From sequence record OM386654.1: 64,000 nucleotides of DNA. The stretch is one strand, 5' to 3'. Shown here one piece after another: positions 5,321-15,930 of the stretch (position 1 is the first letter of the stretch; every line of letters starts with the position of its first letter). The position numbers and the translations under genes were made by a program. The DNA is from Escherichia phage vB_EcoM_ESCO9. The notes beneath the pieces are model-generated. The model was not told the origin of the DNA. It did no database searches and worked only from the letters and a program-made list of their open reading frames with translations.

Positions 5321-5353
5321 TTAGGTAAAAAGAAAGGGCGCAATAAGCGCCCT
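5321..5353 (-). terminator. intrinsic terminator after gene 5369..5752
   Basis: Stem agggcgc/gcgccct followed by T-run on the minus strand. Confidence 0.55.
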
Positions 5354-5368
5354 TGTTTGAAATGTTAT

Positions 5369-5827: not shown

Positions 5828-6058
5828 TTATTTTTCAAAAAATTTTTCTACTGTGATATTCTTCCCAGTGGGATTAGCTACTTTCAAAATTTTATCATGT
5901 ACTGGACGCCCAAAAGAATAAGATCCGTATACAGTAAACCAATAATCACCGTCAGGCTGTACTATCACCGCTGCATAGGGTACGCCTTTTTCGTTATTGC
6001 TGACAGAATAGATCACATTGCCGTTAATAGCTTCAGCGCGTTTAATTTGTTCGATCAT
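5828..6058 (-). CDS. hypothetical early protein
   Basis: 76 aa ORF downstream of promoter-hairpin cassette. Confidence 0.55.
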   Translation of the reverse strand: MIEQIKRAEAINGNVIYSVSNNEKGVPYAAVIVQPDGDYWFTVYGSYSFGRPVHDKILKVANPTGKNITVEKFFEK

Positions 6059-6075
6059 GATATGATTCCTATATT

Positions 6076-6137
6076 GAGCGGGAAACCACTTCCCGCCTTA
6101 CGTGATACATCTTAGTATAAGGGCGATCCGGTGTCAA
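6076..6137 (-). promoter_or_regulatory. early promoter plus leader stem-loop cassette
   Basis: Minus strand: TTGACA, 17 nt, TAAGAT, then hairpin GGCGGGAAGTGGTTTCCCGC. Confidence 0.6.
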
Positions 6138-6481
6138 TAGGTAGGATTGTAAATATTTGATAGTTTATTCCTTTGATGTTTTGTTGTTTGATAGGTATTA
6201 GCTATTAATATATAGCGGGATCTTCCGGTGATTATCTTCCCCTGTCCCCAGGTGCCGCCCGTTCCATAATAATAATCAAAAGCAGGATAAAAGGCAAGAT
6301 AAAAAGCAAATTATTTCCTATGTGCTTTAAACGCTCTAGATAGCTTTATAACAGCTTTTTCATCCTGGTAAGGTGATTAATCATTCCTACCTTGTTTAAG
6401 CGGTTACAGTCGGTTTTAGATGGTTTTACGCCACCTTTACGCCTATTCTTTACGTGTCGCTTCCATTGTGAAAAAGAATAC

Positions 6482-6513
6482 AAAAAAGGGCGCTTAGTGC
6501 GCCCCTTTCTTTT
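6482..6513. terminator. bidirectional terminator-like hairpin
   Basis: aaaaaa-gggcgc-ttagt-gcgccc-ctttctttt. Confidence 0.5.
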
Positions 6514-6521
6514 ACCGTGTA

Positions 6522-6911
6522 TTAATATTCGTTATAATACATCGCTAACTTTTCATCAAAAGCCGATTGACGATCTGCATACTCCCAGAACATTTCCTGA
6601 TCCTGTTGTTCGTCATCATCCATCATATTAAATTGCGCAACCTCCTGGTAAGTGATCGCCATATTATAACGATAGGTGATCTCTTCTGCGATGTTTTCCG
6701 GTAAAGATGATTCTACACTGTCTAACAGCATATTTAACATCATTTCAGCCGCTTTTTCATCATTATCAAAGCAGTAAGCAGACCATGCCGCATGATGTTT
6801 ATTTTTCATCTTTGCAATCAAGCCATTGACTAAAAAAGGCGCTACGTTGTTAACGATACCCTGTAAAGATTGGAATTTTTCAACGTTAGAAACAGAAACC
6901 AGGTTGCGCAT
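6522..6911 (-). CDS. hypothetical early protein
   Basis: Start moved to internal ATG at 6911; track start at 6947 lies inside the leader hairpin. Confidence 0.5.
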   Translation of the reverse strand: MRNLVSVSNVEKFQSLQGIVNNVAPFLVNGLIAKMKNKHHAAWSAYCFDNDEKAAEMMLNMLLDSVESSLPENIAEEITYRYNMAITYQEVAQFNMMDDDEQQDQEMFWEYADRQSAFDEKLAMYYNEY

Positions 6912-6934
6912 AGTATTTACCTTTTTGATTACCT

Positions 6935-6993
6935 GGCGGGAAACCATTTCCCGCCTACGTGGTAAATAATAACATATTGGGGATCGGTGTCAA
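6935..6993 (-). promoter_or_regulatory. early promoter plus leader stem-loop cassette
   Basis: TTGACA, 16 nt, TATTAT, hairpin GGCGGGAAATGGTTTCCCGCC. Confidence 0.6.
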
Positions 6994-6999
6994 TACTTT

Positions 7000-7386
7000 T
7001 TATTCAATATAAATCAAATTATCTTCACCAATGTAAGCATGCACCGATGGCATTAATTTAGCTGCATTTGTTAGGCGGTTGGCGGTGTTAGTAGTGTATA
7101 TTTCAGGGCGATCCCAAAAGCCTACGCCGTGACCGTTACGGGTAAAATGTAAATCATTCCCGATCTGGTTTGCTGTAGCGCCGTCGCTCATTGCCTCAGA
7201 GATAGCAGCATCATTGGCATCACAATAAGCCGCTACGTCATGAATGATCCGCTGATGGGCTTGATCTGAAAAATCATAATCGTCTAAGTTATCAATAAAA
7301 TAGCCTTCATGATCCCTGGCCGATTCAGCAAAAATAAAGGCTTCTTTATAACCGTTGATGATTTCAATAATGATTTCAGTTTTCAT
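7000..7386 (-). CDS. hypothetical early protein
   Basis: 128 aa ORF. Confidence 0.6.
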   Translation of the reverse strand: MKTEIIIEIINGYKEAFIFAESARDHEGYFIDNLDDYDFSDQAHQRIIHDVAAYCDANDAAISEAMSDGATANQIGNDLHFTRNGHGVGFWDRPEIYTTNTANRLTNAAKLMPSVHAYIGEDNLIYIE

Positions 7387-7598
7387 GCTGTACGCTCGAC
7401 AATAATAATGGTTTGCGGTATCTCGTTTTCTACTACTAACAAGGCTTTTTTCTGCGTGATAGATATTTTAACACGTTGTAAAGTAGCGGTAAAATCTTTC
7501 ATTTCATTATGCGCGGATTTAGTGCAATGCCAGATCTCAGGTTTACCTATTTGCAAGCCGCGTAAAAATTCTGTTTTACCTGTCTTATTCGTGATCAT
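7383..7598 (-). CDS. hypothetical early protein
   Basis: ATG at 7598 with AAGGTG RBS; track start at 7616 is TTG. Confidence 0.45.
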   Translation of the reverse strand: MITNKTGKTEFLRGLQIGKPEIWHCTKSAHNEMKDFTATLQRVKISITQKKALLVVENEIPQTIIIVERTA

Positions 7599-7608
7599 TT
7601 GATTCACC

Positions 7609-7713
7609 TTATCCAATACCGTGGGAAGATAGGATCATGTTAGCCATAGTTGCAACCAATCCAACCGATAACGCCAGGCCAACTATTACAACCGTGAAAA
7701 TTTTCTCTAACAT
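7609..7713 (-). CDS. small single-TM peptide (34 aa), approximate
   Basis: MLEKIFTVVIVGLALSVGLVATMANMILSSHGIG; GAGGGTAG RBS. Confidence 0.3.
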   Translation of the reverse strand: MLEKIFTVVIVGLALSVGLVATMANMILSSHGIG

Positions 7714-7794
7714 GATTCTACCCTCATTAATGGGCGTTGCCTTATTGCCCCGCCCTATGTCGTACACTTTACCAGATAACCGCGTATTGTCAAA

Positions 7795-7989
7795 CTATTT
7801 TTTATAAGGGATCAGTAAACTTCTTGCTACCGCTTCACGTAAACCTTCCCTTTTTATCAGGTCTATTGTTGCAGGGTGGCAAGTAAAAGCCTTTGACCAT
7901 TTTTGATCACCTGGTTTACGGGCGAAAATGTAAACTTCTCCGTCGATTTCATCCCAACGAGTATTGCTTGTTAGTTTTTTAAGCGCCAT
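7795..7989 (-). CDS. hypothetical early protein
   Basis: Start moved to ATG at 7989; longer ORF runs into leader hairpin. Confidence 0.5.
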   Translation of the reverse strand: MALKKLTSNTRWDEIDGEVYIFARKPGDQKWSKAFTCHPATIDLIKREGLREAVARSLLIPYKK

Positions 7990-8010
7990 GCTGATTTCTC
8001 TTTTAGTTGT

Positions 8011-8068
8011 GAGCGGCACTATTGCCGCCCTACGAAATACATTCTACCCGATTTATAATTGTTGTCAA
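8011..8068 (-). promoter_or_regulatory. early promoter plus leader stem-loop cassette
   Basis: TTGACA, 16 nt, TAGAAT, hairpin GGGCGGCAATAGTGCCGCTC. Confidence 0.6.
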
Positions 8069-8069
8069 A

Positions 8070-8339
8070 CTATTTTTTCAAGCTCGACCAGTCAAAACAC
8101 GGGGCGATCTCGTTAAAACTTGTACCCTGTAAAGCACATAATTTTTTAGCAATAGCCGCCGTAACCTGGCGTTGTACGCGCGGATCTGCTACTGATTGGA
8201 GAAAATAGGCGGTTTTATATGTGATCATGCTTTCGCCTGTTTCCTTGTTAACGTGGTGCACGGTTTTAGCCTTATCATCTTTTACCAGGGTGTAACCGGA
8301 TTCAATGGCCTTGATTGCAACGTCCAAAGATATTTTCAT
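8070..8339 (-). CDS. hypothetical early protein
   Basis: 89 aa ORF; AAAGAGGTAAATC RBS. Confidence 0.6.
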   Translation of the reverse strand: MKISLDVAIKAIESGYTLVKDDKAKTVHHVNKETGESMITYKTAYFLQSVADPRVQRQVTAAIAKKLCALQGTSFNEIAPCFDWSSLKK

Positions 8340-8358
8340 GATTTACCTCTTTATTGAC

Positions 8359-8379
8359 GGCGGGGAATACTCCCCCGCC
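8359..8379 (-). promoter_or_regulatory. leader stem-loop with no own promoter
   Basis: ggcggggaatactcccccgcc about 19 nt upstream of start codon; upstream gene ends immediately before it. Confidence 0.5.
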
Positions 8380-8386
8380 TTATTAA

Positions 8387-8557
8387 TTACTCTTCATCGT
8401 CGCCGTTATAGTATTCAATGCCGTTTTCATCGGTTACAGTAATGTTAACGCCACCGATAGCAACACGATCACGGGCAAACGTCATGGCTTCATTTAAATC
8501 TTCAGACCAAAAAATATTGTGACCTTTGCGCGATACATAAAACATAGTTGGGATCAT
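8387..8557 (-). CDS. small hypothetical protein (56 aa), approximate
   Basis: ORF below track cutoff; AGAAGAGAAA RBS; sits downstream of cassette 8579..8640. Confidence 0.35.
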   Translation of the reverse strand: MIPTMFYVSRKGHNIFWSEDLNEAMTFARDRVAIGGVNITVTDENGIEYYNGDDEE

Positions 8558-8578
8558 GATTTGTTTCTCTTCTGTTGT

Positions 8579-8640
8579 GAGCGGGAAACCATTTCCCGCC
8601 CTATGTGATAAACTTTACTACGTTGTTTGCCTAGTGTCAA
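8579..8640 (-). promoter_or_regulatory. early promoter plus leader stem-loop cassette
   Basis: TTGACA, 17 nt, TAAAGT, hairpin GGGCGGGAAATGGTTTCCCGCTC. Confidence 0.6.
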
Positions 8641-8641
8641 A

Positions 8642-8926
8642 TTATTTTTTAATGTTTTGCCCTACAAAATTGATCACTTCCTTAAGCTGTTTCTCAGTCA
8701 TGATCGTGCCTGGTAATTCTTCTTTGATTTCTTCCGGTAGATAGATATTACCGCGCCAGGTTAATAAACAACCGTTTTGATCTTCGCAGATAGAATAAGA
8801 GAAGATCCACTCATTATCATTCTCAAGCTCCCAAAAGCACAAAAAATCTTCTTTCCCTAAATTTTCAACGGTTAAACATAATCCGCGACGTGCTGCATAG
8901 TTGGAAAGTGCTTTTGTGATCTTCAT
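8642..8926 (-). CDS. hypothetical early protein
   Basis: 94 aa ORF. Confidence 0.6.
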   Translation of the reverse strand: MKITKALSNYAARRGLCLTVENLGKEDFLCFWELENDNEWIFSYSICEDQNGCLLTWRGNIYLPEEIKEELPGTIMTEKQLKEVINFVGQNIKK

Positions 8927-8945
8927 AGCTTATCTCTTCTGTTAA

Positions 8946-9008
8946 GGCGGGGAAACCATTTCCCCGCTCTATGAGATACAATATACTATCTGTTAGGTGT
9001 GCTGTCAA
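8946..9008 (-). promoter_or_regulatory. early promoter plus leader stem-loop cassette
   Basis: TTGACA, 17 nt, TATATT, hairpin GCGGGGAAATGGTTTCCCCGCC. Confidence 0.6.
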
Positions 9009-9332
9009 TCAATAATCTTTAAGATTTTCTACATTTACAAAAGTGCGTTTATTTTCTAAGTTTTCGCCGTACCATTGCCCCATGTTGATTTCTGCGGTGC
9101 GCAACCAGGACATGCCGCGTTGTATCTTTTTACTTGCAATCTCGATCCGGCTTTTGCATAGTGCTTTCGCTTGCAATGTAAAAACACTATTGCCCTGTAA
9201 TGCTTCCAGGTCATCATGTGCAAGGCGATACTCTTTAAAGCCTGATTCTATCATTTCAATAGCATCAAGTAAACGCGCGCGATGATAGAAAAAATCAGAG
9301 TTATCCAAATAAACACCGATCACAGATTTCAT
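9009..9332 (-). CDS. hypothetical early protein
   Basis: Start moved to ATG at 9332 (MKSVIGVY...) with AAAAGGGTAAAATT RBS. Confidence 0.5.
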   Translation of the reverse strand: MKSVIGVYLDNSDFFYHRARLLDAIEMIESGFKEYRLAHDDLEALQGNSVFTLQAKALCKSRIEIASKKIQRGMSWLRTAEINMGQWYGENLENKRTFVNVENLKDY

Positions 9333-9432
9333 AATTTTACCCTTTTGTTTGCGGCCTTTGCCGTTTTCAAGATATAGTTTAAAGCATAACAAAAAATTGT
9401 CAAGCCTTTAAAGCGTACAACTATAAAACCTA

Positions 9433-9552
9433 TTAAAACACAATGTATAACAACATGGCTATAGTAGCAATACAACATAAAGCCATGCTTGTTTTCCTTC
9501 CTTCCTCGTATGCTGGATTTATTACGCTATATTGTACGGGAATAATTTTCAT
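9433..9552 (-). CDS. small hydrophobic peptide (39 aa), approximate
   Basis: MKIIPVQYSVINPAYEEGRKTSMALCCIATIAMLLYIVF; AAGGAAACAGC RBS. Confidence 0.3.
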   Translation of the reverse strand: MKIIPVQYSVINPAYEEGRKTSMALCCIATIAMLLYIVF

Positions 9553-9561
9553 GCTGTTTCC

Positions 9562-9657
9562 TTAATGTCTTAAAACGTGGTTTACAATAGAAACAAGCAT
9601 ACAGAAGAAAAAAGATCCTGTCAATAAGATACCGAAAAATAAATGTAAATAGGGCAT
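9562..9657 (-). CDS. small hydrophobic peptide (31 aa), approximate
   Basis: MPYLHLFFGILLTGSFFFCMLVSIVNHVLRH; AAGGAG RBS. Confidence 0.3.
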   Translation of the reverse strand: MPYLHLFFGILLTGSFFFCMLVSIVNHVLRH

Positions 9658-9661
9658 GGTT

Positions 9662-9964
9662 TTACTCCTTAAAAAAATCATTGACAATTAAACTGATAAC
9701 GCCCAGCACCAGATCACCAGGTAGTGCCGCGCTTTCGTTGTTGCTTGTTTGCACTTCCTCACTAGTACCAGCACGATAGATTGCATGGTAAGCAATAGTA
9801 TAATAACCTTTCGTTATTTCTTTAAGATTAATGATTAGCACGTTATTTGTTTCATCTTGAAACAATTTAGCGGTGATAGTATTGTTTTCTTTTACACTAT
9901 CGACTTTTATTGATGGATCATTTACACCAGAAAAAAGAAAAAACGTTTTAGCTATGCCGTTCAT
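9662..9964 (-). CDS. hypothetical early protein
   Basis: 100 aa ORF; AAGGAG RBS. Confidence 0.55.
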   Translation of the reverse strand: MNGIAKTFFLFSGVNDPSIKVDSVKENNTITAKLFQDETNNVLIINLKEITKGYYTIAYHAIYRAGTSEEVQTSNNESAALPGDLVLGVISLIVNDFFKE

Positions 9965-10011
9965 GTAGTTCTCCTTTGTTGTGTGTATCTTATAACGTGC
10001 TTTCTATGTTG

Positions 10012-10413
10012 TCAATCTTTTATCTCGGTGCATTTTGCTAGGGTATACGTTGCAAGTGCTGACACTAGTTTTTCATTGCTACGATCTGCGGCTGTACTGT
10101 GTACTTTTTGAATACTTTTTAACCACGGCGTAAAATTTTGAGTAGTCAGCACACTGGTAATAATTTCACATGGCACATCTTCATTTAAGCCGTTAACAAT
10201 AGATTTATCTATTTTTGCCGTTAGTTGTGTAACAGCACCATAAGCGATCATGTGTGAATCCTCCATGATTTCATCGGGGATCGCATTATTAATAAGCATG
10301 ACGTTTTCCATTGCATCAACGGCGCTTAATTCTGCTACTGTGGAGGATATCGCCGCGCTAGATGTTCCAACCATGCCAAAAGAGATTAAACCAGCGATCA
10401 ATAATTTTTTCAT
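10012..10413 (-). CDS. secreted protein with N-terminal signal peptide
   Basis: MKKLLIAGLISFGMVGTSSAA signal-peptide-like N-terminus; GAGG RBS. Confidence 0.55.
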   Translation of the reverse strand: MKKLLIAGLISFGMVGTSSAAISSTVAELSAVDAMENVMLINNAIPDEIMEDSHMIAYGAVTQLTAKIDKSIVNGLNEDVPCEIITSVLTTQNFTPWLKSIQKVHSTAADRSNEKLVSALATYTLAKCTEIKD

Positions 10414-10421
10414 TTCTTGCC

Positions 10422-10604
10422 TCATATATGTTTTATTGAGATTATATTGTCACTATATACAACGTTTTTCAACGTGTCAATAAAAATCTTATTGCCTTCA
10501 ATCCCCAGGATCACGCCGCTAGTTATGAAGCCATATTGATCACGATATCGGGCGCATAACCTTTGCCCCTGGGCTAGTGCCTTGCTTATTTCGTCTAATT
10601 TCAT
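10422..10604 (-). CDS. hypothetical early protein
   Basis: 60 aa ORF; AGGAG RBS. Confidence 0.5.
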   Translation of the reverse strand: MKLDEISKALAQGQRLCARYRDQYGFITSGVILGIEGNKIFIDTLKNVVYSDNIISIKHI

Positions 10605-10696
10605 TTTTAAAGCTCCTGTAAAGCCGTCTAACGTTGATTTATAGGCTTATCCTGGCGTTACCATTGCCTATGGGTAACAAGCCTCTATATAAGCTA

Positions 10697-10724
10697 AAAG
10701 GGCGCTTATTGCGCCCTTTTTTGT
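10697..10724. terminator. bidirectional terminator-like hairpin
   Basis: aaagggcgc-ttatt-gcgccc-ttttttg. Confidence 0.5.
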
Positions 10725-10876
10725 TATTCGTTCCAGTATCTTTTTGTGCTGCGATCTCTCTTTGTTTTGTTCCGCTTGTCGCCTTTTTTGGTGATCTCTT
10801 CGTTCCAATCTTTACGCGCCTTGCTGCGGTTGAATTTTTCGATCTGCTGTGATGCGTTCATGTTTCTTCCTCTTAA

Positions 10877-11236
10877 TTACGCCACGTTATGCTGTTTTGC
10901 CAGGATTACGATCATGCTTGCAATATATAACCAATAATTTTCCCGCTCACGGGTAACGGTTGTTTCTTTGCTTGTTTCTTTTATGTACTTCCATTCAATT
11001 AATAAATGATCAATCTCGTTATAATCAAAGGCGATGTTAATGTCTGACGGTAAACCTTGTAACCATGAGGCTATCGCCTTGATCACGTTATAATTGTAAC
11101 GTTTTTGATTATCGGGATACCAGTATTCAGAGTTAAAACGGCGCATCAGTTCGGTGATCTTTTCTTTTTCGGTTGTAGTACCATCAAAAGAAATAGCCGA
11201 CACAATGTAAGTTTTAATTGCTTTTACTGATTTCAT
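10877..11236 (-). CDS. hypothetical early protein
   Basis: 119 aa ORF downstream of cassette. Confidence 0.6.
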   Translation of the reverse strand: MKSVKAIKTYIVSAISFDGTTTEKEKITELMRRFNSEYWYPDNQKRYNYNVIKAIASWLQGLPSDINIAFDYNEIDHLLIEWKYIKETSKETTVTRERENYWLYIASMIVILAKQHNVA

Positions 11237-11256
11237 GATCTTATCTCTTTATTGAT

Positions 11257-11315
11257 GGCGGGAAACCATTTCCCGCCGTTGTTGTTACTTTACTTATAAA
11301 TGATGCTACTGTCAA
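11257..11315 (-). promoter_or_regulatory. early promoter plus leader stem-loop cassette
   Basis: TTGACA, 17 nt, TAAAGT, hairpin GGCGGGAAATGGTTTCCCGCC. Confidence 0.6.
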
Positions 11316-11322
11316 GCGGATT

Positions 11323-11493
11323 TTATTTATTTTTTAGCGTTAACGTTCCCAGCTTATCAGCGTGACGCAGACCAGGGAAGATCCATTTACCTGATTCATC
11401 TTTTACCGGGGCTTTAAGCGTAGCGCCCAGGTTGGCGGCGTTAACTTTACGTGCAACGTTGCGAGCGGCTTCACGGGTAGCGAAAGTGATCAT
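11323..11493 (-). CDS. hypothetical early protein (56 aa)
   Basis: Start moved to ATG at 11493 with AAGAGGAAA RBS. Confidence 0.45.
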   Translation of the reverse strand: MITFATREAARNVARKVNAANLGATLKAPVKDESGKWIFPGLRHADKLGTLTLKNK

Positions 11494-11516
11494 GATGTTT
11501 CCTCTTCTCTTTGTTA

Positions 11517-11577
11517 GGCGGTGGGCTATTCCACCGCCTTGATGAATACAGTTTACTTTATTTTTGCAGTATTGCAA
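11517..11577 (-). promoter_or_regulatory. leader stem-loop with variant -35
   Basis: Hairpin ggcggtgggctattccaccgcc (compensatory stem changes); TTGCAA in place of TTGACA. Confidence 0.45.
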
Positions 11578-11583
11578 GCGGTT

Positions 11584-11799
11584 TTATGAAATAAATGTCA
11601 AAGTAAAATCATAATCTTTTGACAGTTTATATTGCACCTTGTTACCGTATATGTCACCTTTACGTAAAGATCCACGGATACCGATAACATCCTTCACGTC
11701 TTTTAAATTTTTCACGCCTGTAATGTCTTTGTTGAAATACTCGTCATCTGAAAATAAAACTTGACTTGCATTTTTTAACAGTGTGCGGATATTAGCCAT
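11584..11799 (-). CDS. hypothetical early protein (71 aa)
   Basis: Start moved to ATG at 11799. Confidence 0.45.
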   Translation of the reverse strand: MANIRTLLKNASQVLFSDDEYFNKDITGVKNLKDVKDVIGIRGSLRKGDIYGNKVQYKLSKDYDFTLTFIS

Positions 11800-11820
11800 C
11801 TTGATAATCTCTCTCACTAG

Positions 11821-11878
11821 GAGCGGCACTATTGCCGCCCTATGCATTACATTTTACTGATTTTAGTTATCTTGTCAA
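11821..11878 (-). promoter_or_regulatory. early promoter plus leader stem-loop cassette
   Basis: TTGACA, 16 nt, TAAAAT, hairpin GGGCGGCAATAGTGCCGCTC. Confidence 0.6.
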
Positions 11879-11886
11879 TATTATTT

Positions 11887-12114
11887 TTAGTTTAATTGAT
11901 CCAGGCACAACAAGCGATCAACATTTAGATCGGTTAGGCTAATCGTTGGCACCTGGTAGGATTCGATGTACTCAACGCTCGACCATTGCCCAAAGTTAGC
12001 GACCGCCCAGCTATTCAAGGAGGAGTGAAGATCATCCCCTTTCTTCTCTGTGATAACTGCTACTACCTGGGAGCTTCCAACCGTACCGGATACGCGAACA
12101 ATAACGATAGCCAT
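11887..12114 (-). CDS. hypothetical early protein
   Basis: 75 aa ORF; AAAGAAAGG RBS. Confidence 0.5.
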   Translation of the reverse strand: MAIVIVRVSGTVGSSQVVAVITEKKGDDLHSSLNSWAVANFGQWSSVEYIESYQVPTISLTDLNVDRLLCLDQLN

Positions 12115-12136
12115 AATGATAACCTTTCTTTGATTT

Positions 12137-12196
12137 GGCGGGAAACCATTTCCCGCCCTATGTGATAAACTATACCAGAATTTTAAACAGTGTCAA
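12137..12196 (-). promoter_or_regulatory. early promoter plus leader stem-loop cassette
   Basis: TTGACA, 16 nt, TATAGT, hairpin GGGCGGGAAATGGTTTCCCGCC. Confidence 0.6.
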
Positions 12197-12291
12197 ATTA
12201 TTTTCTATTTCTTCCGTAATAGCCTAACTTATGATCTAAGCTAAAACGTTTTGTGAGATAGGTCGAACGATGTTTCATTTTTATACCTCCT

Positions 12292-12531
12292 TTACATTCC
12301 AACCATAGCGGCACGGATCGCGGTTTTACTGAACTTGAATCCGTCTGGCGTTTTATCTTGATCCATACTTTCAAGAAATAACATCATATCCCGCGCTGCG
12401 TCATTCTTATTGGTGTTAGCTGCGATAAATTCACGCGCAAGATTATAAAAACCTTCATCGTTGTTGATCCAAAGGCTTACATTCCAATGAGTTTTGTTTT
12501 TGTGACCTAAGAACATTTTAGATTTAGCCAT
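12292..12531 (-). CDS. hypothetical early protein
   Basis: 79 aa ORF; AAAGAGATTAACATC RBS. Confidence 0.55.
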   Translation of the reverse strand: MAKSKMFLGHKNKTHWNVSLWINNDEGFYNLAREFIAANTNKNDAARDMMLFLESMDQDKTPDGFKFSKTAIRAAMVGM

Positions 12532-12555
12532 GATGTTAATCTCTTTTTCAGTGAG

Positions 12556-12614
12556 GCGGGAACTATTCCCGCTCTCGATATAAGTATTATATGCTTTTTA
12601 TTCGTGCTGTCAAT
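12556..12614 (-). promoter_or_regulatory. early promoter plus leader stem-loop cassette
   Basis: TTGACA, 16 nt, TATAAT (perfect -10), hairpin gcgggaa-cta-ttcccgc. Confidence 0.65.
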
Positions 12615-12619
12615 GCTTT

Positions 12620-12985
12620 TTATAAATCTTTTTTACGTTTAACATCGCTTGCATGACTGTATACAGCGATCCCATTATCACGGCAAAAACGGGAAAGGTA
12701 TGCATAATTTGAAAACTCTTTACCTTCCATATTAATAACCTTGCTAAATTCTTCCAGGGCGACGGTATCAAAATGATCCCCATAACCATATTGAAACGGA
12801 ACGTTAACGACTTCAATCAGTTTACCGCCGATCTCAACGTCAACCATCAAAGAGAAATAAGTATTACCATAAGACTTTTGAAACCAGCGACGGGCGCTAA
12901 TATGTACCGCTTCAATGCTGGATAGTTCAATTTTAGCAGTGTTAGCCAGGGTAGCATAAGCAGAAACATTGATATTTTTAGCCAT
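12620..12985 (-). CDS. hypothetical early protein
   Basis: 121 aa ORF; AAAAGAGATTAAAG RBS. Confidence 0.6.
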   Translation of the reverse strand: MAKNINVSAYATLANTAKIELSSIEAVHISARRWFQKSYGNTYFSLMVDVEIGGKLIEVVNVPFQYGYGDHFDTVALEEFSKVINMEGKEFSNYAYLSRFCRDNGIAVYSHASDVKRKKDL

Positions 12986-13080
12986 AGTCTTTAATCTCTT
13001 TTGATTAGTTAGGAGTATTCCCGATAAAAGTTATTATGCTTGTACTATCGTTCGTTGTCAATAGCACAAGACTAAAACTT

Positions 13081-13260
13081 TTAACGATAATCATCATATG
13101 CTTTATTGACCTGGCGAATATAGCATTCAAAAGCTAGATCAATAGATTTATATTCACGGATATAATCACCATAGGAAACCACATACATTTCTATAGCTTC
13201 CTCATATGCCAGGATGATAGAATCTAAACCTACGATCTCAGTCTTTGCAATAATAGCCAT
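13081..13260 (-). CDS. small hypothetical protein (59 aa), approximate
   Basis: ORF below track cutoff; AAGGA RBS. Confidence 0.3.
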   Translation of the reverse strand: MAIIAKTEIVGLDSIILAYEEAIEMYVVSYGDYIREYKSIDLAFECYIRQVNKAYDDYR

Positions 13261-13408
13261 GCTTTTATTCCTTAGTCATGTTTCAATCTATATAAGCATT
13301 ATAGCTTACTGATTTCAGGTGTCAAGTGATTTTTTTTATTTCACCTTATGGGGCGTTGCCCCGCTTTATGTGGTACATATTACGGGGCTTGTTCGCATAT
13401 GTCAAGCC

Positions 13409-13963
13409 TTACACAAGACAATTTTCATAATTTTTTAGGGCTTGTCTTTTTTCCTCTTCCGTCGGCATGTATGGCTGGATCTCTTCCTCTTCCAGGGTAG
13501 GCATGATTTCTTCCTCTTCCTCCTGGTCGTCCTGGTCTTCCTCTTGCGCTACTGCAACAAGTTTATTGATCTTCTCCTGGGCTTTAATCAATTTTGCATC
13601 TAGCACCATTTTAGCGGTGTTGTATACCGTCCATGCCATGCGTTTTTCTTCGTATGCTTTATCTAGTGCGGCTAATTTAGCGGGATATTCTTCTAACACC
13701 TTAAAAGCCGGATCAATGCTGTATAAGGGATTATTTTTAGCGTCATCGCTTGGATCTGCGGCGCTTGCAATGTCAGCGTTACCATTTGCCAGCCAACCAG
13801 GGCGAACAGATCGCGCCTTTGTGTTGCCGTTGCTCTTTGCCGCTCGATTTCCTATCTGCTCCCCGCTATACCCTACCATGTGATCGATCATGTCATCTGG
13901 TATTATGCGCGGATCATTAGCGTCATGCTTTACCCAGGACTGGATCACATACTCACGCCCCAT
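13409..13963 (-). CDS. hypothetical early protein with strongly acidic C-terminal region
   Basis: 184 aa ORF; EEDQDDQEEEEE tract. Confidence 0.6.
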   Translation of the reverse strand: MGREYVIQSWVKHDANDPRIIPDDMIDHMVGYSGEQIGNRAAKSNGNTKARSVRPGWLANGNADIASAADPSDDAKNNPLYSIDPAFKVLEEYPAKLAALDKAYEEKRMAWTVYNTAKMVLDAKLIKAQEKINKLVAVAQEEDQDDQEEEEEIMPTLEEEEIQPYMPTEEEKRQALKNYENCLV

Positions 13964-13964
13964 G

Positions 13965-14225
13965 CTAATTTGCCTCTTCTGTTAGTAGTTTACATACCTT
14001 AAACATGCTTGCCGCGTCTTTTGACGGTAGCCAGCCTATGCGATACACTCCCGGATCTGGATTAGTTATATCAGTCAGTTGCGCGTTGCGATGATTAAAA
14101 ATAGTGTAACCGCCGCCAGCACGGGGATAAACATTATCTTTAAACCTGATAGCGTATCTCGCCAGGTTGAACGTTGCAGCATGTTCAAAAGCGATCACAT
14201 TATCAAAAACTTTTAGAAAAAACAA
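13965..14225 (-). CDS. hypothetical early protein
   Basis: 86 aa ORF. Confidence 0.55.
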   Translation of the reverse strand: MFFLKVFDNVIAFEHAATFNLARYAIRFKDNVYPRAGGGYTIFNHRNAQLTDITNPDPGVYRIGWLPSKDAASMFKVCKLLTEEAN

Positions 14226-14227
14226 GA

Positions 14228-14374
14228 TTATCCTCCCCAGCGTTTAAAGCCCGTTGCACGGTTGTTTTTTAGCTCTCGTTTTAGTCTCTTGCAACGGTTT
14301 ACAAGTGCAAACCGTGCCGGAGTCGTAACAGTAGCGCCGTTTTTGGTGTGAATACTCATTACATATTGTTTCAT
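14228..14374 (-). CDS. small basic protein (48 aa), approximate
   Basis: ORF below track cutoff; K/R-rich; AGGA RBS. Confidence 0.3.
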   Translation of the reverse strand: MKQYVMSIHTKNGATVTTPARFALVNRCKRLKRELKNNRATGFKRWGG

Positions 14375-14393
14375 AAAGTTTTATCCTATGTAA

Positions 14394-14446
14394 GCGGGAA
14401 CTATTCCCGCTTTAAGATAGCTTATCAGGTTTTAGTGCAATGTCAA
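14394..14446 (-). promoter_or_regulatory. early promoter plus leader stem-loop cassette
   Basis: TTGACA, 16 nt, TAAGCT, hairpin GCGGGAATAGTTCCCGC. Confidence 0.55.
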
Positions 14447-14452
14447 CCGTTT

Positions 14453-14815
14453 TTATTCGTAAATTTTACCGCTTTCTACCCATACCATAACACGGCGCAT
14501 GTTATCCCATGCATCTTGTCGCAGATTTAAGGCATGCAATTCTTCGGTTGTGCTCATACCTGGTACGGGCTTGCTATATGTTACAAAGAGATCGCCAGCA
14601 TATTCATAAGCCAGGGTAAGATCACATTGAATCATCTTTTTAAGCATAGCATTAAGCATCATATTAGCGGCATGTTGATCACGTTTTAGCGGTAGCGTTG
14701 CGATCTGTGAGCGATAGCTTTCGATCCGTGCATCCACTGCATCACGTGGAAGATTTTTCACGTCGTCGCGGAAAGATACCAGGTTTAACATGATAGTATT
14801 GATTTGCTTGCTCAT
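14453..14815 (-). CDS. hypothetical early protein
   Basis: 120 aa ORF. Confidence 0.6.
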   Translation of the reverse strand: MSKQINTIMLNLVSFRDDVKNLPRDAVDARIESYRSQIATLPLKRDQHAANMMLNAMLKKMIQCDLTLAYEYAGDLFVTYSKPVPGMSTTEELHALNLRQDAWDNMRRVMVWVESGKIYE

Positions 14816-14840
14816 TGTGTTACCCTTTCTTTGATGGCCT

Positions 14841-14901
14841 GGCGGGAAACCATTTCCCCGCCTTATGTGGTATATATTACCAAATTATTTTTCAGTGTCA
14901 A
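14841..14901 (-). promoter_or_regulatory. early promoter plus leader stem-loop cassette
   Basis: TTGACA, 16 nt, TAATAT, hairpin GGCGGGGAAATGGTTTCCCGCC. Confidence 0.6.
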
Positions 14902-14904
14902 GCC

Positions 14905-15177
14905 TTAAAGCAAAAACGCTACATCTTGCGCTTTTAGTGTAGTATCAACCATTTTCGGGCTTTTATAATCAACAAAGCGCGCGGTTTTTTCAATAACGAA
15001 GCCGAGATAATCTTGTTTATTGAAATTACATTCTTTTTTAAATGTTTCCCGTGCCACGGTGATCGCTGCATCCAGGGATAAACGCCCATCAATATTGATG
15101 TTAGCGAAAGATCCGCCACCGCGCATAGGTTTACCAGTGATGCCCATTACGATCATTGATGCGCTATATGATGCCAT
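14905..15177 (-). CDS. hypothetical early protein
   Basis: 90 aa ORF. Confidence 0.55.
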   Translation of the reverse strand: MASYSASMIVMGITGKPMRGGGSFANINIDGRLSLDAAITVARETFKKECNFNKQDYLGFVIEKTARFVDYKSPKMVDTTLKAQDVAFLL

Positions 15178-15199
15178 GATTATTTCTCTCTTCTGTTAT

Positions 15200-15257
15200 G
15201 AGCGGCACTATTGCCGCCCTATGTGATACATCTTATCAGATTAAAAAACGTTGTCAA
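15200..15257 (-). promoter_or_regulatory. early promoter plus leader stem-loop cassette
   Basis: TTGACA, 16 nt, TAAGAT, hairpin GGGCGGCAATAGTGCCGCT. Confidence 0.6.
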
Positions 15258-15632
15258 GAATATTTTTAAAAAATAATAACCGCAACTACAATCCAAAATG
15301 GAACGGCAAGAATGATAGCGTTAATCGTTCCAACCGTCAAGCTGTTTTCTTTCTTGATCATCGTTATCAACCTTTTATAAGTAATGTTATTGTGACGGTG
15401 GATTATGGAGATCCTCACCTTTGCCCGTCCTACATTGCGCCCTCCTTTTGTTTATTGTCGTTGTGCCTCGCCCCCTCGACAAGATGAATAATACGCTACC
15501 AGGTGAGGAACGTCAACCCCTTTTTTAATCTTTTTTTCATTTCTTTTTTTTTTTGCTTGCTATCTATAAAGGAAAGGGCTATTATCTTTCTACCGCGCCA
15601 ACCAGGGCGCACATCAAAGAAAGGGCGATACC

Positions 15633-15901: not shown

Positions 15902-15930
15902 TTGACAAGCCCAGGGATCGGGCTTATACT
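15902..15930 (+). promoter_or_regulatory. near-consensus sigma70-type promoter with no obvious downstream ORF
   Basis: TTGACA, 17 nt, TATACT. Confidence 0.5.

Follow-up and report, generated by a model that had tools for sequence, protein, structure and literature searches.

Promoter and stem-loop cassettes in the variable early-gene region of the phi92-like Escherichia phage vB_EcoM_ESCO9

The cassettes and the region that carries them

A stretch of 64,000 nucleotides from Escherichia phage vB_EcoM_ESCO9 (sequence record OM386654.1), called the window here and used for all coordinates, carries 15 cassettes composed of a promoter and a hairpin, all on the minus strand between positions 6058 and 15257. 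A sequence search found region 6000-15300 to be 99.5% identical to Escherichia phage Paula and 95-99% identical to many further Justusliebigvirus genomes (phi92-like, Stephanstirmvirinae), and it is a variable early-gene region of a phi92-like myovirus of this subfamily. In phi92, the orthologues of the cassette-region genes are gp226-gp248, at the right genome end, with transcription toward the terminal repeat. About 16 small genes of unknown function are preceded by the unit of about 90 bp, all 10 flanked proteins tested matched PHROGs of unknown function, and the gene content of the cassette region varies among close relatives. We infer in this analysis that the cassette genes are expressed early. 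A further 19 records bear the name "Campylobacter phage" (A145 and A110a among them); their identity to this region of an E. coli phage is about 95%, and the host labels look doubtful.

The cassette is composed, in order, of TTGACA, 16-17 nt, TAnnnT, about 10 nt, a GC hairpin, an A-rich leader of 17-25 nt with a weak Shine-Dalgarno (SD) sequence, and ATG. An earlier reading of the same DNA (the original prediction) had claimed at least 14 such modules on the minus strand. We counted 15, with -35 boxes starting at 15257, 14901, 14446, 13405, 12613, 12196, 11878, 11577, 11315, 9008, 8640, 8068, 7793, 6993, and 6137, and in addition a hairpin that has no promoter (8359-8379) and, at 9403 and 13061, two decayed copies. 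The promoter it had described, with a perfect TTGACA, a 16-17 nt spacer, TAnnnT, and the hairpin about 10 nt further on, was borne out, the copy at 11577 (-35 box TTGCAA) being the only cassette among the 15 without TTGACA. The perfect TTGACA, the spacer, and TAnnnT occur together in 16 of the 17 promoter-bearing units, which score 10-12 of 12 on promoter sequence only. Consensus promoters without a hairpin are found in the same region at 13325, 10480, and 10015. The features are as follows; numbers between promoter boxes are spacer lengths in nucleotides, and "model" refers to the covariance model described in the next section.

15175..15257, minus strand: cassette; TTGACA-16-TAAGAT; hairpin 15200-15219 (GGGCGGCA atag TGCCGCTC); ATG 15177; model E=8e-6
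14813..14901, minus strand: cassette; TTGACA-16-TAATAT; hairpin 14841-14862 (GGCGGGGAA atgg TTTCCCGCC); ATG 14815; model match
14372..14446, minus strand: cassette; TTGACA-16-TAAGCT; hairpin 14392-14412 (AAGCGGGAA tag TTCCCGCTT); ATG 14374; model match
13350..13405, minus strand: solo cassette, no open reading frame (ORF); TTGACA-17-TAATAT; hairpin 13350-13362 (GGGGC aac GCCCC); weak model match, E=4.5
13258..13325, minus strand: consensus promoter without hairpin; TTGACA-16-TATAAT; ATG 13260
12983..13061, minus strand: cassette with decayed hairpin (CGGGAATACTCCTA); TTGACA-17-CATAAT; ATG 12985
12529..12613, minus strand: cassette; TTGACA-16-TATAAT; hairpin 12556-12572 (GCGGGAA tag TTCCCGC); ATG 12531; model match
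12112..12196, minus strand: cassette; TTGACA-16-TATAGT; hairpin 12137-12157 (GGCGGGAAA tgg TTTCCCGCC); ATG 12114; dG -17.5, ribosome-binding site (RBS) unpaired; model match
11797..11878, minus strand: cassette; TTGACA-16-TAAAAT; hairpin 11821-11840 (GGGCGGCA atag TGCCGCTC); ATG 11799; model match
11491..11577, minus strand: cassette with weaker -35 box; TTGCAA-16-TAAACT; hairpin 11516-11539 (AGGCGGTGG aatagc CCACCGCCT); ATG 11493; model match
11234..11315, minus strand: cassette; TTGACA-17-TAAAGT; hairpin 11257-11277 (GGCGGGAAA tgg TTTCCCGCC); ATG 11236; model match
10696..10720, no strand assigned: canonical intrinsic terminator, bidirectional in form (AAAAGGGCGC aataa GCGCCCTTTT); closes the first cassette run; contrast class
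9330..9403, minus strand: cassette with weak 4-bp hairpin; TTGACA-16-TAAACT; hairpin 9352-9363 (CGGC aaag GCCG); ATG 9332; model E=0.4
8924..9008, minus strand: cassette; TTGACA-17-TATATT; hairpin 8947-8967 (GCGGGGAAA tgg TTTCCCCGC); ATG 8926; model match
8555..8640, minus strand: cassette; TTGACA-17-TAAAGT; hairpin 8579-8601 (GGGCGGGAAA tgg TTTCCCGCTC); ATG 8557; model match
8337..8379, minus strand: promoterless hairpin 8359-8379 (GGCGGGGGA gta TTCCCCGCC), right behind the stop codon of the upstream gene; leader with SD, ATG 8339; model E=1e-11
7987..8068, minus strand: cassette; TTGACA-16-TAGAAT; hairpin 8011-8030 (GGGCGGCA atag TGCCGCTC); ATG 7989; model match
7711..7793, minus strand: cassette with extended hairpin and internal loop; TTGACA-16-TAAAGT; hairpin 7732-7755 (GGGCG gg GC aataag GC aa CGCCC); ATG 7713; dG -16.8, z -3.8
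6909..6993, minus strand: cassette; TTGACA-16-TATTAT; hairpin 6935-6955 (GGCGGGAAA tgg TTTCCCGCC); ATG 6911; model match
6482..6510, minus strand: canonical intrinsic terminator with T-run (GGGGCGC actaa GCGCCC TTTTTT); closes the second cassette run
6056..6137, minus strand: cassette; TTGACA-17-TAAGAT; hairpin 6077-6097 (GGCGGGAA gtggt TTCCCGCT); ATG 6058; model match

Several copies are incomplete. The hairpin at 8359-8379 has no usable promoter (best match 7/12), which agrees with the earlier observation that the hairpin can exist without one. The hairpin of the 9403 copy has a 4-bp stem with a fold no better than that of shuffled sequences, and in the 13061 copy the 3' arm is mutated; this cassette and the ORF upstream of it are both missing from phi92. 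The solo cassette at 13350-13405, which is followed 20 nt downstream by the second consensus promoter (13258-13325), looks like a remnant left after a gene deletion. About 330 nt (6150-6480), bounded by the terminator at 6482-6510 and by the 6137 cassette, contain no convincing ORF, and phi92, ESCO13, and the relative L004 have other sequence in their place.

The motif TTGACA-N15-19-TAnnnT occurs 37 times in the window, compared with 7.2 ± 2.2 times in shuffles, and 20 of the 37 matches lie on the minus strand at 6.1-15.3 kb. GC-rich hairpins with a stem of at least 6 bp number 35, compared with 2.3 ± 1.3 in Markov shuffles. They can be divided into two classes: canonical terminators, and hairpins of the GGCGG...CCGCC type without T-runs, which lie at 6077-15219. 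The terminator class, present outside the early region as well as at 10696-10720, 6482-6510, and 5334-5354, has flanking A/T runs and GNRA or UUCG loops.

In the cassettes, the first paired base lies 6-14 nt from the -10 box (mode 10-11), stems are of 7-10 bp, the total hairpin length is 13-24 nt, and 17-25 nt separate the 3' end of the hairpin from the ATG, close to the 20 nt or so originally estimated. The hairpin is the dominant predicted fold of the leader (-14 to -19 kcal/mol), with the SD sequence and ATG predicted to be unpaired. The description of the copies as near-identical was overstated: mean column identity is 59-62%, the -35 box is the sole invariant part, and the hairpins form about six sequence types. 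Alignment of the cassettes also reveals an A-rich UP-like block upstream of TTGACA, and AAAGAG or AAAGG followed by ATG, and a conserved AT-rich box with the predicted start site, CAYRTAG(G), flanks the hairpins. The cassette supplies its own weak GAG/AGG SD sequence. In phi92 gp225-gp248, the genes behind hairpin cassettes mostly have a three-base SD sequence (GGA, GAG, or AGG) in an A-rich leader, whereas the SD sequence of cassette-less neighbor genes is mostly AGGAG or GGAG.

Annotation of the region is affected by the cassettes. As had been pointed out, ORF starts fall inside them, for example, ATG 6947 in an AAATGG loop; the mechanically called minus-strand ORFs at 6947, 11577, 9008, and 12613 begin at the ATG of such a loop or at the TTG of TTGACA. 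For the 129-amino-acid protein, PHROG profile alignment backs a start at 6911, not 6947. In public records of relatives, coding sequences or "terminators" are annotated over the hairpins.

Confinement to one region and occurrence among relatives

The covariance model was seeded with hairpins of equal geometry, 15 in all, drawn from the window and from four relatives, since the MAFFT alignment of full leaders was not structure-consistent. The original prediction had named such a search as a check; with filters off, the model found 15 minus-strand copies at E<0.01, all in 6055-15227, and no comparable match elsewhere in the 64-kb window. In the complete Justusliebigvirus alia genome, strong matches are likewise confined to one stretch of 8.3 kb. 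Because all strong matches fall there in both the window and the alia genome, the element family is specific to this early region. Across relatives, promoters score at least 10/12 in 59 of 76 copies, and about 10% of copies are promoterless. In 34 orthologous cassette pairs, the hairpin is 95.4% conserved, compared with 88% for the spacer that separates the -35 box from the -10 box and 95.7% for coding sequence.

The same cassette is present in Phapecoctavirus (ESCO13), and similarity matches were also found in Klebsiella, Enterobacter, Pantoea, Serratia, and Salmonella phage records. Loci of Vequintavirinae (phage Av-05 and a contig 99.5% identical to MiataMamis) contain consensus promoters followed by hairpins at the same distance but with other stems, such as GACGGGGAG/TTCCCCGTC, GGGGAGAG/CTCTCCCC, and GGGGGCAAG/TTTGCCCCC. 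Another repeated hairpin, GATGGCCTTG acac/ataac CAGGGCCATC, occurs in the Vequintavirus-like contig L007 at 6582-6606, 7216-7239, and 11503-11526, each time 48-51 nt upstream of a start codon.

Rfam, searched at gathering and permissive thresholds, gave no family for the cassette hairpins; the only weak match was STnc320 (E=0.32), on the true terminator at 10691-10736. Our literature search on phi92-, phAPEC8-, and rV5-like phages (Stephanstirmvirinae and Vequintavirinae), which did not cover the phi92 genome paper, returned no earlier account of the motif. The rV5 genome paper describes sigma-70 promoters and terminators only.

Terminator features, pairing, and recombination joints

It could be supposed that the stem-loops are transcription terminators or attenuators that shield each gene from upstream transcription. 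The Paula record (LR865361) carries 11 "terminator" features on these hairpins, on either strand, and the hairpins of both Vequintavirinae and Stephanstirmvirinae are GC-rich and stable. A terminator role has also been assigned to the stem-loops of the promoter-early stem-loop (PeSL) cassettes of phages RB49 and phi1, and an RB49 PeSL stem-loop behind a strong promoter lowered lacZ expression (PMC2839356). However, the 8 nt past the stem contain on average 1.4 T (maximum 4, none with 5 or more) and 4.2 A in 68 distinct sense copies, and on this tail composition, with no U-tract after any of the 68, an intrinsic terminator was rejected. A terminator scan of the gene strand called no cassette hairpin but did call the T-run terminators at 6482-6510 and 5334-5354; the one at 10696-10720 was called on the plus strand only, despite its flanking A and T runs. 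On the plus strand, only 2 copies pass the T-run criterion. Moreover, the hairpin lies downstream of the promoter to which it belongs, and a terminator at this position would stop transcription of the cassette's own gene at about +25. We consider termination or attenuation very unlikely and prefer to read the Paula record's "terminator" labels as software calls.

Pairing in the stems has been kept. In 89 matches aligned to the model, standard pairs fill 97.4% of cells, compared with 85.7% in shuffles, and two-sided changes occur at all 8 pairs (66 cells), values that 0 of 500 shuffles reach, although the figures lean toward structure, the alignment having been fitted to the model and 13 of its matches being antisense. 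Slid controls were 39-73% paired. The distinct stem types of Vequintavirinae and others support maintained pairing independently of the model-fitted alignment. The compensatory variation noticed originally is thereby confirmed, but not that stems are always compensated, as G.U and A.C mismatches are present at the basal pair. Compensatory change of this kind reflects selection, or a mutational bias, for pairing and does not identify the molecule in which the pairing matters.

The cassettes also coincide with recombination joints. Breakpoints were taken from alignments against phi92, ESCO13, and two IMG/VR relatives; 18 of the 26 unique ones lie inside cassettes and 21 lie within 7 nt of one, whereas cassettes make up 20% of the region (p<1e-4 for the excess relative to random positions). 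One phi92 cassette is a chimera in which the promoter of the 8640 copy is joined, in the shared CATAGGGCGG, to the hairpin and gene of the 8068 copy, with identity to the former up to CACATAGGGCGG and to the latter thereafter; the chimera loses 572 bp comprising two genes and the promoterless hairpin. For a second indel, the joint lies at the ATGGCTA of two cassettes, and in the replacements 6936-6153 and 8013-7804, a hairpin bounds one side and the UP region the other. The junctions are scattered across the whole cassette (UP region, spacer, hairpin, and SD/ATG), so ordinary homology-driven exchange suffices. A role of the cassettes as recombination linkers is supported by these comparisons. 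Neither the PeSL architecture nor the coincidence of cassettes with junctions of gene gain and loss had been recognized in the original prediction.

Proposed function and likeness to known systems

We propose, with moderate confidence, that the unit is a PeSL-like cassette with functions in early regulation and in recombination. Its stem-loop would be part of the transcript, as a 5'-proximal hairpin in the leader, and would probably serve as an mRNA stabilizer or decay insulator. Host RNA polymerase would start at the A of the CAT box in CAYRTAG, 7-8 nt past the -10 box. Because the hairpin starts 10-11 nt past the -10 box in most copies, it is predicted at about +4/+5 of the transcript, beginning about 3-5 nt from the mRNA 5' end; a transcript beginning with this A, which belongs to the conserved CAT, would have 3-4 unpaired nt ahead of the hairpin. 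In 5' stabilizers, the hairpin lies within about 2-4 unpaired nt of the 5' end. Emory, Bouvet and Belasco in 1992, and Bouvet and Belasco in the same year (both in the reference list of PMC3997798), reportedly described the range of distances between hairpin and 5' end over which such stabilizers act, and the predicted position would fall within the reported range. Of the roles suggested originally (5' stabilizer, processing site, or protein-binding site), the 5' stabilizer fits the geometry best.

In such a position, the hairpin would act as a 5'-proximal shield against 5'-end-dependent decay by RppH and RNase E while the ribosome site stays open. In read-through or promoterless contexts, it might instead stand between cistrons as an obstacle to scanning by RNase E or to 3' exonucleases, and each small cistron could then be expressed and decay independently. 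The dispersed cassette copies would at the same time be patches of homology, at which recombination may add, delete, or swap the small genes that they flank. A role in RNA is favored because the hairpin lies in the transcribed leader of both subfamilies, because promoterless copies keep the set distance from hairpin to RBS, because the RBS is predicted to be single-stranded, and because loops in the sense strand are biased to the U(A/G)G type (T(A/G)G in DNA; at least 45 copies, compared with 1-3 inverted forms).

Several points weigh against this proposal. The covariation was originally taken to argue for selection on RNA structure, which is not established. When a G-C pair undergoes a transition, G.U and A.C have an equal chance of arising in the sense strand, and selection on sense RNA should enrich G.U; in 40 distinct hairpins, however, we found 12 sense-strand G.U and 9 A.C (p=0.66). 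There is also no consistent energy difference between the strands, the sense fold being more stable in 37 leaders and the antisense fold in 24. The predicted 3-4 unpaired 5' nucleotides would be at the upper limit for blocking RppH. The promoterless copies (about 10%), having no promoter of their own, would not be 5'-terminal unless the transcript is processed. The hairpin is dispensable for at least some genes, to judge by the two decayed copies and by the three consensus promoters of the region that lack one. As for recombination, nearly all intergenic space here is cassette, and part of the breakpoint enrichment is therefore explained by selection against gene disruption; measured against the approximately 11 gene junctions that have no cassette, the excess is no more than about 3-fold. 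Transcript 5' ends, half-lives, and timing for this phage group were not found in the searchable literature.

With no strand asymmetry, maintenance of the pairing may be a matter of the DNA itself or of quasi-palindrome correction. On such an explanation, the inverted repeat acts or merely persists as DNA, either as a recombinogenic hairpin or cruciform or as a quasi-palindrome maintained by template-switch repair and cassette duplication, and has no role in RNA. The hairpin of an IMG/VR relative (L005 10778-10801) orthologous to that at 11516-11539 of the window points in the same direction: its central 8 nt are changed from GAATAGCC to the exact reverse complement GGCTATTC, a small inversion between the arms and thus a DNA-level event. 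The AGTAT and ATACT loops of different cassettes suggest the same process. In several events, the junctions are in or beside hairpins, and the DNA-level idea was also raised by the authors of the PeSL work (PMC2839356). However, the spread of junctions over the whole cassette suits general homology and not a site-specific cut, and the hairpin, with differing stems, is always in the transcribed leader of two subfamilies at a set distance from the -10 box and ATG. The loop bias by strand also speaks for a transcribed role. We think it unlikely, on balance, that the inverted repeat matters at the DNA level only. A dimeric DNA-binding protein of rigid form is unlikely too, as the outer GGCGG/CCGCC boxes are 13-17 bp apart among copies; a palindromic operator of such a dimer was rejected on this spacing, on the covariation of the inner stems, and on the hairpin length of 13-24 nt.

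Alternatively, the hairpin might be a site for a phage or host RNA-binding protein exerting regulon-wide early control, either a repressor for early shut-off or an antitermination factor of the N/boxB or put kind. Many copies do occur in one temporal class, 5-10 nt upstream of the SD sequence, with the shared flanking box CAYRTAGG and a frequent U(A/G)G loop. Loops nevertheless range from 3 to 7 nt with varying sequence, and the stems are not the same from copy to copy or from genus to genus; because loops vary, a loop-specific RNA-binding protein is disfavored. With only three terminators in the region, antitermination at every promoter would have no obvious purpose. A nut/boxB-type antitermination site was rejected, as there is no boxA-like match next to any hairpin, loops are of 3-7 nt, and Rfam gave no match. 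Overall, we give the protein-binding explanation little chance.

Recognition of the hairpins by structure and not by sequence has also been considered. A phage factor might cut or recombine extruded DNA hairpins, which would make these integron-like, actively mobile cassettes in a virulent phage, or a factor might bind the leader hairpins of the early regulon as a post-transcriptional switch; we regard both forms as highly improbable. An N4-type hairpin promoter was considered and dropped, as consensus sigma-70 boxes lie directly upstream and these phages are not known to carry a virion RNA polymerase.

If the cassette is indeed a PeSL-like unit with a stabilizing or insulating leader hairpin, the PeSL principle, in which regulatory cassettes double as recombination linkers for accessory genes, would reach the phi92/rV5-like myoviruses of phage therapy collections, in a form with the stem-loop as part of the mRNA leader. 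Public annotations would then need correcting where they call hairpins terminators or let an ORF begin within a hairpin loop or at the TTG of a -35 box. The unit would also be a compact natural part (strong promoter, 5' hairpin, and open RBS) with about 40 sequence variants, useful for testing the effects of 5'-proximal hairpins on mRNA decay and translation in E. coli.

According to previous research, PeSL cassettes are present in the T4-type phages RB49/phi1, PST/T4, and nt-1/KVP40 (Arbiol et al. 2010, PMC2839356; Comeau et al. 2014, PMC4122927). The cassettes described here share with them a repeated intergenic unit of about 70-100 bp in which an AT-rich upstream stretch and an early promoter of near-consensus sigma-70 type are combined with a G/C-rich stem-loop, an SD sequence, and a start codon. 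Units of both kinds lie clustered in a variable part of the genome, among small genes whose function is unknown. Indels and replacements that distinguish close relatives coincide with them, the crossovers falling at differing points within the unit, and solo or degraded copies occur in both. However, the phages here belong to Stephanstirmvirinae and Vequintavirinae and are not T4-like, and the sequences are unrelated. The RB49/phi1 stem-loops are mostly between or overlapping the promoter boxes, and those of PST and nt-1 are upstream (PMC2839356, PMC4122927), whereas the stem-loop here is always downstream of the -10 box (6-14 nt) and hence in the transcript; a minor subclass in RB49 also has the stem-loop past the -10 box (PMC2839356). 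Termination is not expected here, without a U-tract. For the T4-type PeSL cassettes, excised mini-circles formed during infection are a further characteristic. On the plus strand of the window, a divergent consensus promoter at 15902-15930 (TTGACA-17-TATACT) carries the inverted repeat AAGCCCAGGGATCGGGCTT in the spacer from its -35 box to its -10 box, a layout that is the most frequent one among the RB49 PeSL and differs from that of the minus-strand cassettes.

As in the stabilizers of the ompA 5' untranslated region (hp1) and papA, a stable hairpin lies a few nucleotides from the predicted 5' end and is followed by an unstructured ribosome-binding region. Here, however, it is a multicopy paralogous phage element, some copies are transcript-internal, and the 5' ends are predicted. 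Repetitive extragenic palindromic (REP) elements and other intercistronic stabilizers likewise consist of GC-rich hairpins in intercistronic positions, have no U-tract, and could halt exonucleases or the scanning of RNase E, and the layout of the promoterless copy at 8359-8379 resembles theirs. REPs are host elements located 3' of genes, some of them bound by gyrase or IHF, whereas the hairpins here stand at a fixed distance from a downstream RBS.

The lambda nut (boxA-boxB) and HK022 put sites are also hairpins transcribed just past early promoters. The cassettes, however, lack boxA, a conserved GNRA-like pentaloop, and the two-stem fold of put, and they occur in dozens of copies and not in two. 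The integron attC site shares an imperfect inverted repeat on each small, promoter-proximal gene cassette and gain or loss at the repeat, but the phage cassettes differ from it in having no integrase, no extrahelical-base signature, and no single fixed junction position.

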